Below, piece after piece: positions 8,401 to 27,830 of a DNA stretch of 64,000 nt (positions are counted from its first letter, which is position 1; each line of letters begins with the position of its first letter). The translations under genes and the position numbers were made by a program. The notes beneath the pieces are model-generated. The model was given only the letters and a program-made list of their open reading frames with translations. It did not search any database and had not been told where the DNA came from. Source of the DNA: a virus (lineage: Duplodnaviria; Caudoviricetes); IMG/VR virus record IMGVR_UViG_3300026549_000063, positions 21,643-85,642 of that record; one strand, given 5' to 3'.

Positions 8401-11400
8401 CCAGCAAGCTTGTTCCTAATAAGCAATGCTTTATTAAGTGGTTGGCAGACAGACGTAAAGATGCAAAATTTAGAGAGAAAGAAGAACAACGCAACCGTAA
8501 CAAAGAATTCAGTAAATCTAACTTTAGCCGTGCAGGAAAAGATTTTAGTTACAGCTGGAACGAACTGAAGCACGGCAACTTACTGAACGCAACTTATGCA
8601 TTTGGTAAAGGTATAAGAGATTCTATATTTGGGCTATTCGGATCTATTGCCGATATGGCTAAAGACTTCTACTCTGAAGATGTTAGTTCCTACGATCAAG
8701 CTTGGCGTGAAGCTAAGTTAGTAGCATACAACTTCAAGAAGAAAGAAGCAGCTATAAATAGAAATAAAGAAGTTGGTATCCCCTTTGGCCCCATTGGTAT
8801 CGCCTTTGACCTCACCCGGAGTCTTGTGACAGGAATAACCACTACTGATAAGATAGAATTCCTGGATAACCTTGAAGATAAAGCCAGACCTATCGTCGAC
8901 CAGGAACGTCCTGATCTTGATAGAACTGAGTTAACTGAACTTGCAGATGAACTCATTCCAGATGAAGAGATAAAAGCTAGTGCTAAGAAATTCGGAGGAA
9001 ATACTAAAGAAGTTGAAGATGCTAAGGTAGACTACATCTCAACTTGGTGGAATAGAATCTTTATGCCTATCTTCACCATGTACCTTAGGGCTCTTCGTGC
9101 TGTTACTAAAACTGATATTGGTGATAAGCCTCACCTTAACAGTGTTCCTAAGGAAATCAGAGCACAGACTATCGATGCATTTAAGAAGGGGGCATCTGAC
9201 TACAAGAGTAAGAATAAGCTATTCGATCTCATTCCTACTGCTAAAGGTTATGCTGAATGGTACATGGCTATCGATAAGACTGCTATAGATTCAGCTACTA
9301 CAGTAAGAAGATCTAAGAGCGTTGGAGAAAAAGTAACTGAAGCATTCCAGGGAACTGGGCATCAGTTCGGTGAAGCTTGGGATAAACTTTGGGAGGGAGA
9401 TTTCAAAGGATCCTGGCGTTCACTCACTAAGGGAACTAAGAAACTACTTACAGGTATCGGGAAATCTATCACGGGTATTGGCGAATCTATCGGAGATTAC
9501 TTCTACGGTAGAGGAAGTAATACTGTCGAGAAGAACTCATGGCGCGAATTAAGGTATAAGTACTACAACTATCCTAATGCTACTATTGGCGTAGAAGATC
9601 CCACAACTAAAGCTAGACTAGCTGCTATCGAGGAACTCGAAAAGAAAGCTTTAGCTACCGTTGAGGAAGGCGAAGATGCTGCCAACAACCTAATCAATAC
9701 TGGGCTAGACGACAAAGTACTTGAGAAATTCGGTATTACTATCGGATTCATCAGACCTAAAAAAGGAATTGCTAACTCGAGAGGAAGACGGGGTAATGTA
9801 CGTGCACAGGTAGATTACAGCGATAAGGACAACAAATGGGCTAAAGACTTTATCAGATACTGGGTAGAGCATGTATTCTTACCAGTATATAAGGACTACG
9901 TAACCATAGTCAGTATATACACCGAAAGAGAACCTGGTGATAATGTCAACCCTGATGATATCAAGAAAGAAGAACGCGAAGAGGCAATGGAGTACTTTAA
10001 GAAAGCTGCATCGCCTAAAGCCGCTAAGTACAAAGATTACCCGATGAGTAGCAAAGGCTACGTTAAGTTCATCAAAGAACTCTTAGCCTATGAGAAAGCT
10101 ACAGCCGAAGGTAAGGGCAATGCTCCTGTAACTTCAGCAGTTTCAGCTACTCTTGCTGCAAATAGCGAAAAAAATAAGAATGAGGTAACTAACAGGATAA
10201 ATAGCGTTACAACTGGTATGGGTAAAGATGGTGATAAAGGCGTAGCAGAAGCTACTACTAAAGCAGCGTCCACACTCGATCAGGATATCGCTATAGTAAC
10301 CAGATCTTCCGGATCTAACCCGAAATCCATGGCTGCTTATCTTGGTGTTCCTGATGCTGAAGATAAGAAGATTCCTGCTAAATGGAAAAATATCTTAACC
10401 GCTGGTTCTATCAAGACTCAATTCTTCCAGGCAAGATTAAGATCTTACTCTAACGTTCTCGGTACTCCTCCCGGAGTATATCTAGGCGATACCTTTAAGG
10501 ATAACCTTGAAGGAAAATGGTTCAGAGCTTTCCGTGATTTATTCGACAAAGTTACTTCTGGCCGTAATGCTCAGGATTCTCTTGAAAAGAGTCTATTTGA
10601 CTATCAGAACAACGGTGCTAGCTCAACCTTCGCTGAGAACGTAAGCAAACTGGCAGCATTCACCTTCTTCCAGCTTGGTAACCCTGATGCAGTAAGAATA
10701 GCTGCTTCTAAATGGGAACATCCTAGTTGGATGGATCCTGATGGAAATAGAACTAATCCGGATATCAGTAAAAATATCGATGATTGCATTCAGTATATTA
10801 ACAATGACCTCAAGAAAATGGGAAGAAAAACTGAGGATGACGTTGCTGTTGCTGACTGGCTTGAAAGTGTTGTTGACAAACTTAACAAATGGGCTAACAT
10901 TGTTAGAGAGTGGGTATCCTGGGTTATCAATCCAGTATTTGCGTACTACACTTCTTTCGTCAATAAGCTAACTGGCCATGATGATACAGTAATGCCCGAT
11001 CCTACTGCTATCCCTGCAGCGCAGCGTAGAAATGCTTTAATCATGTTCCTTACCAGAGCCGAGAAAATTTGCTCCAGCGCATCTCGCCCTTATTTACGCG
11101 ATTTCAACTTAGGAACCGGGTTGTTCAATATTCCTGTAGCGCAAATCATGGAAGCGTACGATAAGTTCACTGCCAAAGATAACACTGCGAATAATATCGG
11201 AACTAAGGGTTCTATTAAACGCAACGGTGCTCCTGGATCTGATAAGAACACCAATAAAGATAACGATAAGAGTAAAGATAACGCAGCTGAACCTGCTAAC
11301 AACGAAGGAGCTGCTGGTAAGAGTGGTAGTACTCAATCCGGTACACAATCTCCTAACGCTAATGGAACCGGTGCAAATCCTGAACAGACTATGAGCGATC

Positions 11401-24455: not shown

Positions 24456-25853
24456 TTAAACTCTTCTATATAACTGATTAGCTGCTTCAGAGATATTCTT
24501 CTGTTGTAGAGCTTGAAGTTTAGCAGCAGTTTCAGCAATATCGTTCTTTATCTGATCCATTTCATTAGTCTTAGGAATAAGACGAGGATCTTCTTTCCAT
24601 ACCAGACGAATACCACCTATCGCTCCATCCTCCTCAGCTCCTATAATGTACGGAAGGCCTACAAAGTTCTTGTATACATCGGGACGGGCACGATAAGAAT
24701 CTATATATCCAGATTGATCAGACGATTTAGCGGAATGTCGCTCTTCATCTATATGAGTAGCTCCAGTCATATCTTCTGAAAGCGTAGTCCAGCTTTCAAT
24801 ATTCGGATTGTAACGTTTCATCAGTTCACGAAAATCATAAATGATACCAGGATCATTATACTCTATACAGTTAGCCGTAAACGGTATAGAGAAGTTCTTA
24901 GCTGCTGATATAGTAACCTCGCCCTGATTGATATTAAATATCGATCCTACCGGAGCTGATTTAGGAAAACACCCAGTAGCTTTGCTCCACCAGAGAATAT
25001 TTCTACGGGTATTATCTGTAATGAATCTATAGATAGATACGGTATAGTTTAAGCGTTGTTCGTAAATATCATCAGGATAAGCCATTACCACATTCTTAGC
25101 CTGAAGTGCCATATATAAGCACCAGTAGAAGAGACAGGATAAAATGACTGAGCCCTGTATATCTACAAATTCAAGGGAAAGCTCCTGAGTACGGTTAAAC
25201 AGTTCAGCACCTTTAACAAAGGTCATATCTCCGCTATGGAAATCTTCACCCATAGTGACAGTTTCCATATTGAAATCAGGGTAACCTGAGATACCACGTA
25301 AGCCATTACAGAGCGGAGTAAAGAATGGATTACGAATATCAACTAGCACATTTTTAGAAGCTGCTTCAAATATTGCTTTTTGATCTGGAGTAAGCGTCGC
25401 ATTAGAATCAGCATATGAAAATGGTATATCGCCTCTGGAAATACAAGTGTCAAGCAACATGCGAATAGCAAAAGCTACTGACTTAGGATACTTTGTAGCT
25501 AATAATGACAATACTGGATGCTGCTTAAGGTTACCAGTAGTCATATTCAATCTAGGTCTGGTTATAAAAGTATAGCCATAATTCAGAGTATTGATTGGAA
25601 CATATGCAGTTCCATGGCGATCTAGTTTAGATATGAAATTTTGTATAGAATTGTTATACGCACCATTACCCATAGACTTGGCGGAAGCATCAAGTATCTT
25701 CTCACCAAATTCCTTCACCAGACCTGCATTATGTAGAAAAGTACCAGGTGTACCATACAGCACACCATTTTGTTTATAAGACCAAATATCATCTATATCT
25801 GTAATATTAACACCAGATAATATGTAGTCAGTATCACTGGAACTAGTTGGCAT
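24456..25853 (-). CDS. Tail/baseplate structural protein (tube-like fold)
   Basis: YTFITRPRLN...NYTVSIYRFI...GCFPKSAP..F..N..EYND pattern; co-oriented with the wedge gene. Confidence 0.55.
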   Translation of the reverse strand: MPTSSSDTDYILSGVNITDIDDIWSYKQNGVLYGTPGTFLHNAGLVKEFGEKILDASAKSMGNGAYNNSIQNFISKLDRHGTAYVPINTLNYGYTFITRPRLNMTTGNLKQHPVLSLLATKYPKSVAFAIRMLLDTCISRGDIPFSYADSNATLTPDQKAIFEAASKNVLVDIRNPFFTPLCNGLRGISGYPDFNMETVTMGEDFHSGDMTFVKGAELFNRTQELSLEFVDIQGSVILSCLFYWCLYMALQAKNVVMAYPDDIYEQRLNYTVSIYRFITDNTRRNILWWSKATGCFPKSAPVGSIFNINQGEVTISAAKNFSIPFTANCIEYNDPGIIYDFRELMKRYNPNIESWTTLSEDMTGATHIDEERHSAKSSDQSGYIDSYRARPDVYKNFVGLPYIIGAEEDGAIGGIRLVWKEDPRLIPKTNEMDQIKNDIAETAAKLQALQQKNISEAANQLYRRV

Positions 25854-25967
25854 ACTGATGTCTCCTTATCTAAAAGTCATAACATATGATTTTCGGGTAA
25901 TCAAAATATCATTCCGTATTTTTTTACATAGCAACATATATATTTTGAGACAGTTGACTGCATCTCT

Positions 25968-26027
25968 TTAGGTACGTACAGCAATCTTAATATTTCAAGC
26001 TTCCTACGCTAAAAGAAACGTATCTAG
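25968..26027 (+). ncRNA. Candidate structured RNA unit A (ACAGCA motif)
   Basis: Terminal stem TAGGTACGT/ACGTATCTA; loop begins ACAGCAA; internal TTTCAAG; ends TCTAG. Confidence 0.55.
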
Positions 26028-26051
26028 TCTTACCTCAATGTAGTCAGCTAA

Positions 26052-26161
26052 TAGGCACGAACAGCATCTTTCAAGTTAACTAGCAGAATAGGGAGGCTCC
26101 GCTTGCTTACGCGCGTGGGCAGGACCTCCTCGGAGCTGTCCCTTGATAAAACTGTGTCTAG
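26052..26161 (+). ncRNA. Candidate structured RNA unit B (ACAGCA motif)
   Basis: Terminal stem TAGGCAC/GTGTCTA, then ACAGCA, inner TCAAG/CTTGA stem and nested GC-rich hairpins; ends TCTAG. Confidence 0.6.
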
Positions 26162-26168
26162 CATCTCA

Positions 26169-26212
26169 ACATACGCTCTAGCAATAGAGCGTATGTCTCT
26201 CATTTATTTTTT
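26169..26212 (+). terminator. Terminator-like hairpin between the RNA units and the vWA gene
   Basis: 12-bp stem ACATACGCTCTA/TAGAGCGTATGT with a GCAA tetraloop and a U-rich tail after a short spacer. Confidence 0.65.
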
Positions 26213-26228
26213 GTTAGGAGACAAAATT

Positions 26229-27830
26229 ATGTTTGCAATAAAAACACTCAACGATAAGGGTGGCATCGGTTACGAGTCAACTGGTTCTAATCTACTGGAT
26301 CTGTTTACTGATATTGGTAACTCCAGAGAGCATCTCATCCCTAGAGTAATCACTAACATCGACAACATCTGCAACTCAGCCGGAGATAATGATCATCTTT
26401 ACGCCATGGTTGCTGTTCTGCTGGCGTACATGAGAGATCGTATTAACGGCTGTGGGCACAGAGCTTCTTTCTATCAGGCATTCACCTATTTTCTTACCAG
26501 ACTGGCTGAAAATAAAGGTTTCTATTACGCCAACGGTTTGATTACTCAGCTGCTTAAGGTAATGGTAGACGAGTATGGCAGATACGATGATCTTTTCGAA
26601 TTAGTAGAAGCCGCTAATGAGATCCGTAAAAGCAGTACCTCTATGAGTGCTTCTTACAAAGCTACTCTGCTAACCGGAATCATTTACGAATACGCTTACA
26701 GTGTCATGAACAAAGACATTGAAAGCGATAAAGTATCATTACTTGGCAAATGGTTGCCAAGTATCAATACTTCTTCTAAGCGTACTCGCAAGATGGCACA
26801 GGATTTTCTTAAGTGGATAAGTGCTAAGCATAAGAAGATATCTCCATCGGCTTACCGTAAGATTTGCAGTAAGCTTAGAAAAAAGATCAACATCGTTGAG
26901 CACGATCTCATGCAGAGAACCTATGAGGATATAGACTACTCCAAAGTTCCTTCTCTAGCTCTTCTTAAATACAAGAAAGCCTGGATAAGGAACGATGAAG
27001 AACGTTATCGAAAATATCTAGAGGATGTAGCTTCTGGTAAGAAGACTATACATACTGACACGGTTACTGTGGTCAACCTAATCAAAGCTTTAGAAACATG
27101 CAAGCCTTATCAGCAGTTAGATGAAGATACCAGTGCCACTGTTGATCTAATGTGGGCTAATCTTAAGAAGCATCCTACTAAGTATCTGGTATGCCGTGAT
27201 GGTTCCGGCAGTATGTACTGTAAAAATGAATACAGTAGTGTACGTCCTATAGATGTAGCAGATGCCCTTACGCTGTATTGTGCTGAAAATAACTCTGCGT
27301 ATAAAGACCTCTTTATCACCTTCGGTGAGGATGTTCAGGTAGTTAGACTACATGGTGAAAAATTTAGCGATCGGGTAAATGAACTTCGTCGATACGACGA
27401 TTGCCGTACTACTAATTTCGCTAAAGTATTCGCTGCTATTCTCAGTTACGCTGAGGAAAATCATCTTACTCAGGATCAGTTACCTGAAGGTATCATTGTT
27501 ATCAGCGATATGCAATTTGATTCCGCATTTAACAATACCAATGCTTCTGTTTTTCAGAGCATCAAGAGACATTTCGAACGTAGTGGGTACACTATTCCGA
27601 AGCTTATCTTCTGGTGCGTAACTGGCAAAAAAGCTTTACCTATTTGCAACGACGATACCGGAGTTACTATGCTTTCTGGCTGGAATCAGAATCTAATTCA
27701 GTATTTCGTATACGGAGAGGATATCACTCCTACTGCTATCGTTAAGTCGGTACTTAACAGCGAGAGGTACATACCTATCCTGCAGGTATTCGAACAAGCC
27801 AGGCTTGCGCAAAATATGCTAAGGTCCTGA
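26229..27830 (+). CDS. DUF2828-type TROVE-like/vWA domain protein (Ro60-related architecture)
   Basis: ATG 26229 after AGGAG. Helical N-half with LLGKWLPS and KVPSLALLKYKKAW; vWA MIDAS DGSGSM, FITF, TNF..VF, ISDMQFD, LIFW. Confidence 0.85.
   Translation: MFAIKTLNDKGGIGYESTGSNLLDLFTDIGNSREHLIPRVITNIDNICNSAGDNDHLYAMVAVLLAYMRDRINGCGHRASFYQAFTYFLTRLAENKGFYYANGLITQLLKVMVDEYGRYDDLFELVEAANEIRKSSTSMSASYKATLLTGIIYEYAYSVMNKDIESDKVSLLGKWLPSINTSSKRTRKMAQDFLKWISAKHKKISPSAYRKICSKLRKKINIVEHDLMQRTYEDIDYSKVPSLALLKYKKAWIRNDEERYRKYLEDVASGKKTIHTDTVTVVNLIKALETCKPYQQLDEDTSATVDLMWANLKKHPTKYLVCRDGSGSMYCKNEYSSVRPIDVADALTLYCAENNSAYKDLFITFGEDVQVVRLHGEKFSDRVNELRRYDDCRTTNFAKVFAAILSYAEENHLTQDQLPEGIIVISDMQFDSAFNNTNASVFQSIKRHFERSGYTIPKLIFWCVTGKKALPICNDDTGVTMLSGWNQNLIQYFVYGEDITPTAIVKSVLNSERYIPILQVFEQARLAQNMLRS

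Follow-up and report, generated by a model that had tools for sequence, protein, structure and literature searches.

A covarying family of small RNAs beside phage genes for predicted Ro60-like proteins

The Ro60 protein and its Y RNAs make up a classic yet poorly understood RNA-surveillance particle. Ro60 proteins, which combine a TROVE domain with a von Willebrand factor A (vWA) domain, bind Y RNAs through the terminal stem in which the RNA's 5' and 3' ends pair and are encoded alongside them. Here we analyze a phage locus that resembles this arrangement, in which two small structured RNAs, unit A and unit B, precede a gene for a protein of the DUF2828 family. The locus lies in a 64,000-nucleotide (nt) stretch of DNA, referred to here as the window, which covers positions 21643-85642 of the 85.6-kilobase (kb) IMG/VR virus record IMGVR_UViG_3300026549_000063 (Duplodnaviria; Caudoviricetes). 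CheckV estimates this record to be about 30% complete, so it represents a fragment of a very large phage.

The bases of a Y RNA that Ro60 recognizes are conserved and belong to the 5' strand of the stem, and the Ro-binding motif of Y RNAs, GGUCCGA or GNCGAA(N)G, is found near the 5' end (PMC4201824). Known examples are the vertebrate Y RNAs, Yrn1 of Deinococcus, and YrlA/YrlB of Salmonella, mycobacteria, and TROVE-encoding phages (PMC4201824); Thermus phage phiLo has a Ro60 with Yrl1 and Yrl2 (PMC12135203). In Escherichia phage JohannRWettstein (Bas63), gp130 was described by its authors as Ro60-like. This protein acts against the Ppl defence, and T7 benefits from it too once it is transferred to that phage. 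The authors guessed that some of the annotated tRNAs might be Y RNAs; the RNAs reported below were not described (PhageMaP preprint, PMC11482910). Another RNA design is that of the Class I RNAs of Dictyostelium (Rfam RF01414). These are RNAs of about 60 nt from clustered genes; a short stem closes them, a conserved motif containing ACAGCAA comes immediately after its 5' strand, (C)UG follows its 3' strand, and the A/U-rich interior is variable (PMC7919456).

Two units of a covarying RNA family

Both units lie in a 375-nt intergenic gap (25854-26228) between two divergent genes, and their 3' end is 68 nt upstream of the DUF2828 start codon, on the same strand.

25968-26027, + strand: unit A, a 60-nt handle RNA (stem 25968-25977 / 26018-26027; core ACAGCAA 25978-25984; cargo of 33 nt)
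26052-26161, + strand: unit B, a 110-nt handle RNA (stem 26052-26059 / 26153-26160, then G 26161; core ACAGCA 26061-26066)

The term handle refers to the closing stem together with the core next to its 5' strand, and cargo to the interior of the RNA. The stem of unit A, UUAGGUACGU / ACGUAUCUAG, has 10 base pairs (bp) with G-U pairs included, so it forms only in RNA of the + strand; that of unit B, UAGGCAC(G) / (U)GUGUCUA, has 8 bp. Both are built on a UAGG...UCUA stem base and both have a G after the 3' strand, while the core reads ACAGCAA in unit A and ACAGCAU in unit B. A long G+C-rich hairpin (26091-26142) forms the cargo of unit B. Three of the four nested stems that the original prediction had drawn in unit B are present in the minimum-energy fold, but the TCAAG/CTTGA pairing is absent from it.

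To place the units in a wider set, an alignment of close homologs (A1) was extended to 80 IMG/VR loci encoding relatives of the DUF2828 protein at 28-44% protein identity; the loci numbered L096-L102 came from a metagenome scan. We then used a covariance model, R1, with 57 seed units, all taken from other phages and none from the window. On both strands of the window R1 matches only 25966-26029 (34.7 bits, E 7.7e-5) and 26049-26163 (20.6 bits, E 0.076), or E 3.3e-6 for unit A and 0.0032 for unit B when the locus alone is searched, all of these E-values being rough as calibration was shortened. The same two matches, and no others, are returned from the whole 85.6-kb record, and they stay the sole credible matches with filters off; R1 detects no handle unit downstream of the DUF2828 gene in the window. 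An independent model thus picks both of the units, 60 and 110 nt long and of shared architecture, that had been outlined from the letters of the window.

Across 582 kb around 82 homologous genes, R1 gives 127 matches at E <= 0.1. Every one of them is on the strand of the DUF2828 gene, and they cluster no farther than about 900 nt upstream or about 500 nt downstream of it. Within the 500-600 nt upstream of the gene, ACAGCA is found in more than half of the loci, in up to five tandem copies. The family has a fixed layout: a (U/A)AG-stem, 0-3 nt, the unpaired ACAGCAA, 20-130 variable nt, and the complementary strand ending in CU(A/U), followed by G. The sequence of the stem is free while its pairing is kept, as in AGGCAC/GUGCCU, AGAUGAG/CUCAUCU, and AGUUGAU/AUCAACU. 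The basal pair is swapped between UAGA...UCUA and AAGA...UCUU (U-A in 26 and A-U in 25 of the seed sequences), and changes on both sides occur at 7 of 7 stem pairs. The G after the 3' strand is present in 57 of 57 seed units, though it was not a selection criterion.

Seed units were picked for having a stem, and a separate, selection-free test was therefore made on all ACAGCAA sites. Distinct sites number 176 on the gene strand versus 33 on the other, where about 35 are expected by chance. Among the gene-strand sites, 72% have a correctly arranged stem of 7 bp or more versus 28% in shuffled sequence, with no excess on the other strand. Units A and B are members of a large, covarying RNA family that lies beside DUF2828 genes, always on the gene strand, in very different phages, and the family is spread over FelixO1-type, Listeria, Staphylococcus, mycobacterial, and giant phages. 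A covariance model, the kind of check that had been proposed along with the original prediction, has recovered a conserved and covarying family, and the idea that a DUF2828 protein has its own RNA family is supported by the ties of position and strand between the two in many unrelated phages. The family is apparently undescribed: we found no account of it in the literature on DUF2828, phage Ro60 and Y RNAs, ACAGCAA, and Ppl, and no Rfam family. With blastn, the locus matched none of 50,697 phage records.

Several of the elements listed in the original prediction, namely ACAGCA, an A-rich 3' interior, and the UCUAG ending, recur in other loci as features of the family. TTTCAAG, listed with them, is present in both units within a block that they have in common through duplication, but it is absent from the two relatives described next and occurs upstream of the gene in just 2 of the 80 loci. 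It was rejected as a family element and is a remnant of the A/B duplication.

In the nearest relatives, L004 and L099 (44% and 40% protein identity), the parts are ordered as in the window; in L004, too, a tail tube gene diverges from the DUF2828 gene. In all three an outer helix surrounds unit A and is followed by unit B, a hairpin with a T run, a ribosome-binding site, and the gene. The outer helix and the terminator-like hairpin are additions to the original prediction.

25923-25951, + strand: putative promoter or transcription-start region, an uncertain assignment; AT-rich block TTTACA...TATATATTTT, with a similar block before the first helix in the L004 alignment
25952-25963, + strand: 5' strand of an outer 12-bp helix around unit A, paired with 26038-26049 when 25940-26210 is folded (minimum-energy and centroid structures)
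26038-26049, + strand: 3' strand of the same helix (fold of 25940-26210), with analogues of different sequence in L004 and L099
26169-26212, + strand: terminator-like element, a perfect 12-bp hairpin (26169-26196) and a T run (26203-26212); fold z -3.94, with equivalents in L004 and L099
26216-26221, + strand: ribosome-binding site AGGAGA of the DUF2828 gene, read from the sequence, 7 nt before ATG 26229

The outer-helix sequences of the window, L004, and L099 (AGUUGACUGCAU, GGAAUU-AUAACAC, and CAUGAGGA) are unrelated, and so are the terminator stems. Since the order of parts is the same, it is the structure that is conserved. Homologs of unit B are present in both relatives, as unit B' in L004 (2813-2916) and as a further counterpart in L099. 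The terminator-like hairpin stands between the handle RNAs and the DUF2828 gene, and the stretch 25940-26210 as a whole folds far better than its shuffles (z -3.97). The AT-rich block upstream of the first helix does not recur as a phage promoter motif within the window. In the strain represented by L096, 1 change is found in 375 intergenic bases, versus 5.5% of bases in the protein gene, and this near-identity fits a strong constraint on the gap. A third 5' half-site had been suggested at 25947. This candidate was rejected as a unit, as 25952-25963 forms the 5' side of the outer helix in the fold of 25940-26210 and R1 gives no match there, with filters on or off.

The cargo is not conserved even within this sub-lineage; that of unit A in L099 is a tRNA-shaped element with an 8-nt anticodon loop. 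Cargoes seen in relatives include tRNA-like arms and exposed CCUCCU loops, as well as a complete tRNA-shaped element. In the cargo of 117 units, T-arm motifs are enriched, and CCUCCU, which resembles the anti-Shine-Dalgarno 3' tail of 16S rRNA, occurs 5 times versus 0.2 expected (0 of 300 shuffles reach 5; the reverse complement is not enriched), an enrichment spotted post hoc and a lead only. As ACCUCCU the motif is located in an internal loop of unit B in the window (26124-26130) and in a hairpin loop of unit B' in L004 (L004:2870-2885). Other units with CCUCCU are L073:4531-4627 and L007:4482-4584.

Several cultured phages carry the family. In Staphylococcus phage SEP9, R1 finds three units directly after a gene annotated as 'RNA-binding protein', and in mycobacteriophage JoeDirt two units after gp52, a 'Ro-like RNA binding protein'. 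The whole genome of FelixO1 has three R1 matches, all just after ORF86, and that of Bas63 has one, in an unannotated gap between tRNA-Met and tRNA-Asn genes just downstream of bas63_0130. Listeria phage cka15 has three tandem units before CKA15_055, two of which are detected by R1. The cka15 homolog was detected in purified virions by authors who speculated on Y RNAs and did not give their location (PMC12282133).

Further RNA features were observed at two of these related loci. The top-transcribed region of cka15 (PMC12282133) is a separate unannotated non-coding stretch, L083:3291-3782 (record 26236-26727), about 1 kb upstream of the three units. Within 5 kb after the DUF2828 gene of the same phage are genes annotated as 'tRNA splicing ligase', of the RtcB type, and 'RNA ligase' (L083:7654-8865 and 10425-11299), a neighbourhood that recalls the rsr-yrlBA-rtcBA operon of Salmonella. 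At L046:2471-2534 a RAGATH-18 RNA (67 bits) lies about 500 nt upstream of the DUF2828 gene, beside a 112-nt tRNA-like gene whose anticodon arm is made from ACAGC/GCUGU and contains a 48-nt insert.

The DUF2828 protein and its predicted Ro60 fold

The gene downstream of the units encodes the presumptive protein partner.

26229-27830, + strand: gene for a Ro60-like ring protein of 533 amino acids (predicted fold), DUF2828 plus DUF7788 (vWA with an intact MIDAS motif, DxSxS, MIDAS standing for metal-ion-dependent adhesion site); Pfam, PHROG 850, AlphaFold2, Foldseek

By sequence the protein belongs to PF11443 (DUF2828, 95 bits) and PF25043 (DUF7788, 127 bits), and it matches PHROG 850, 'RNA-binding protein', at E 4e-92. 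A match to vWA_Ro60 is sub-threshold (E 0.0078), no TROVE match was found with Pfam, and a sequence-profile search of the PDB did not find Ro60. The MIDAS residues D324, S326, and S328 are invariant across the aligned homologs. The AlphaFold2 model is confident, with a predicted local distance difference test (pLDDT) score of 81.5 and a predicted template modeling (pTM) score of 0.84. When it was compared with the PDB using Foldseek, the top 12 matches (ranks 1-13; E 6.5e-9 to 3.6e-5) were all Ro60, Rsr, or phiLo Ro60, over the full length. They include the proteins of Thermus phage phiLo, human, and Xenopus and the Rsr of Deinococcus, at 12-15% identity and template modeling (TM) scores of 0.53-0.63. 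The model thus predicts that the DUF2828 protein is a full-length Ro60-like ring with a vWA domain. The gene had been called TROVE-like/vWA; the vWA domain with its MIDAS and a full-length Ro60 fold are borne out, the latter as a prediction, but TROVE itself is not recognized by sequence.

Gp130 of Bas63 (bas63_0130) and the window protein are homologous, with 28% identity over residues 166-515 (E 4e-41). The relationship is distant, and Bas63 is a FelixO1-type phage, in which the units are downstream and among tRNA genes. The suggestion of a counter-defence role for the window system has experimental support in this homologous protein (PMC11482910).

The homologs align from ATG 26229 and AGGAGA precedes it, and these two observations support ATG 26229 as the true start of the gene. 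The public gene call P0001 (575 amino acids) has its start at TTG 26103, inside unit B, and would have unit B and the terminator hairpin translated (26103-26228).

Comparison with known particles and alternative explanations

The locus is like Ro60 and its Y RNAs in that a ring-shaped HEAT-repeat plus vWA protein, as judged from the predicted fold, is encoded beside small RNAs on the same strand. Like Y RNAs, the handle RNAs have a 5'/3' closing stem, a conserved motif on the 5' side, and several RNAs per locus, and some family members contain tRNA-like modules. The position of the RNAs upstream of the gene is as in M. smegmatis, where they are cut from one precursor (PMC4201824). There are also differences. 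The protein belongs to the DUF2828 plus DUF7788 Pfam family, with the low identity to Ro60 given above, and the conserved motif of the RNA is the unpaired ACAGCAA, not GGUCCGA or GNCGAA. GNCGAA is absent from 25947-26212; the single CGAA in that stretch is at the junction of stem and core in unit B and is not conserved in L004. Rfam searches, also proposed with the original prediction, gave no Y RNA or YrlA match for the units at the gathering score or at E <= 10, and none in 20 related loci; the window searched at the gathering score, the locus searched permissively, and the 20 related loci yielded only tRNA, tmRNA, HEARO, and RAGATH-18, none of them over units. Membership of the handle RNAs in the Y RNA or YrlA family was therefore rejected, given the lack of GNCGAA and of an Rfam match. 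'Y-RNA-like' remains apt as an analogy of design (closing stem, 5'-side motif, adjoining Ro-shaped protein) but not as a statement of family.

The RNA design that the handle most resembles is that of the Dictyostelium Class I RNAs, with which the handle RNAs have in common the features set out in the introduction. The published description (a stem, ACAGCAA next to the 5' strand, 42-65 nt; PMC7919456) is matched by unit A in every respect and by unit B in stem and core, though not in its length of 110 nt. RF01414 aligns to one phage unit, L070:2425-2485, in exactly the handle register, at 17.5 bits versus a gathering score of 41.5 (E 2.2), far under the threshold though the best match among the relatives examined with it; it has no match in the 85.6-kb record at E <= 10. 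Unlike the handle RNAs, Class I RNAs come from eukaryotes, are equipped with a promoter element of their own, DUSE, and have been reported as unique to dictyostelids, and their known direct binder is the RNA recognition motif (RRM) protein Rnp1A, not a Ro-like protein (PMC7919456).

From these comparisons we consider that 25947-26212 is probably a + strand small non-coding RNA operon, with two handle RNAs and a terminator-like hairpin, followed by the gene for the Ro60-shaped DUF2828 protein. By analogy with Ro60, which binds Y RNAs at their conserved stem, the ring protein would bind the handle in a similar way, and the cargo could be the working end, a tether, or a decoy. In the sub-lineage of the window, the handle RNAs and the gene probably form one transcription unit. 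As the distance from the hairpin to the start codon is at most about 30 nt, the DUF2828 mRNA would most likely arise by read-through of the terminator and would then be scarcer than the RNAs. A ribonuclease (RNase) specific for double strands could plausibly process the transcript at the double helix around unit A. A likely role would be protecting or remodelling the RNA pool in infection, or countering a defence, as genetic evidence shows for the homologous gp130 with Ppl.

A number of observations weigh against this interpretation. No promoter for the handle RNAs was identified in a scan for the sigma-70 consensus. Folded singly, the units are no stabler than shuffled sequence (z -0.65 for unit A and -1.08 for unit B), so the case rests on the comparison across loci, not on folding energy. 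Unit B scores just 20.6 bits with R1 and has ACAGCAU in place of ACAGCAA, and the cores of its counterparts in L004 and L099 (AUCAGCAG and CCAGCAA) are variants as well. In the stems, G-U outnumbers A-C by a small margin (11 vs 4). A recombination boundary may contribute to the low intergenic divergence of the L096 strain, whose tail tube gene differs by just 1.6%. Finally, gp130 alone restored plaquing of T7 on the Ppl strain (PMC11482910), which means that the phage RNAs are not needed for the anti-Ppl activity.

The layout of the window also lends itself to a reading in which the units serve chiefly as a leader that acts in cis on the DUF2828 mRNA, an attenuator with its terminator in which the protein or another factor sets read-through and the RNAs have no free role. 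The ribosome-binding site in the window, L004, and L099 is immediately preceded by the units and a strong terminator, which leave no space for a separate promoter. In most other phages, however, the units come after the gene or are scattered between tRNA genes, with as many as 5 or 6 in an array, which a leader cannot account for, and cargo that mimics parts of tRNAs has no obvious use in an attenuator; we regard this explanation as unlikely, although cis-acting and free-RNA roles could coexist in the window. The association with tRNA genes raises the question of whether the units are signals that govern processing or stability in phage operons of tRNAs and small RNAs, read by an RNase or a modification enzyme, with the proximity of DUF2828 incidental to the tRNA region. 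Many loci do have the DUF2828 gene inside tRNA arrays, and some units enclose tRNA-like elements. Yet the tRNA cluster of the window is 18 kb from the DUF2828 gene, on the opposite strand and without a handle unit, while both units are at the gene; the units of L004, JoeDirt, and SEP9 adjoin the gene without tRNA genes alongside, and in the FelixO1 genome they do not extend across the tRNA region. This account thus appears still less probable than a leader.

That the repeats act as DNA, as sites for binding, recombination, or homing endonucleases, or that their resemblance is due to chance, is highly improbable. They are inverted repeats in an intergenic position between divergent genes, and homing endonuclease genes are near some loci, as a role in DNA would have it. 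A DNA element would not account for the single orientation of the R1 matches relative to the gene or for the asymmetric core; moreover, the stems covary while their sequences are free, and the G-U pairs of both window stems are A-C mismatches on the other strand. Chance resemblance is excluded by the independent model R1 and by the strand comparison of ACAGCAA sites.

Returning to the RNA operon with its ring protein, a wider proposal can be put forward as a tentative one, which we consider possible but doubtful. DUF2828 rings and ACAGCAA-handle RNAs might constitute a second, phage-borne class of Ro-type particle. The constant handle would dock on the protein, and swappable cargo would mimic components of the translation machinery (arms of tRNAs, anticodon loops, and the 16S rRNA tail with CCUCCU) as a decoy or adaptor against host defences that target RNA; the Class I RNAs of Dictyostelium might be a eukaryotic branch of the same RNA family. 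If true, such a system, built in parallel from another protein family and another RNA handle, would provide an independent view of how rings use RNA adaptors and a molecular frame for the counter-defence protein gp130. It would also explain unannotated gaps in many phage tRNA regions and give the Class I RNAs a testable origin and protein partner. Several carriers are cultured phages, so the idea is directly testable.

Neighbouring genes and other elements

The other gene that borders the gap is transcribed away from the units.

24456-25853, - strand: tail tube gene (PF23971)

In the 5' leader of this gene (- strand) a near-palindrome, AAAAGTCATAACATATGATTTT, is found at 25868-25900. It is kept in L004, where it is a perfect palindrome, and may be an operator or a leader hairpin.

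Within the tRNA cluster of the window, 46132-46189 (- strand) has a partial tRNA match in Rfam (model positions 8-63, 53 bits) and no ARAGORN call, and may be a truncated or unusual tRNA-like gene.
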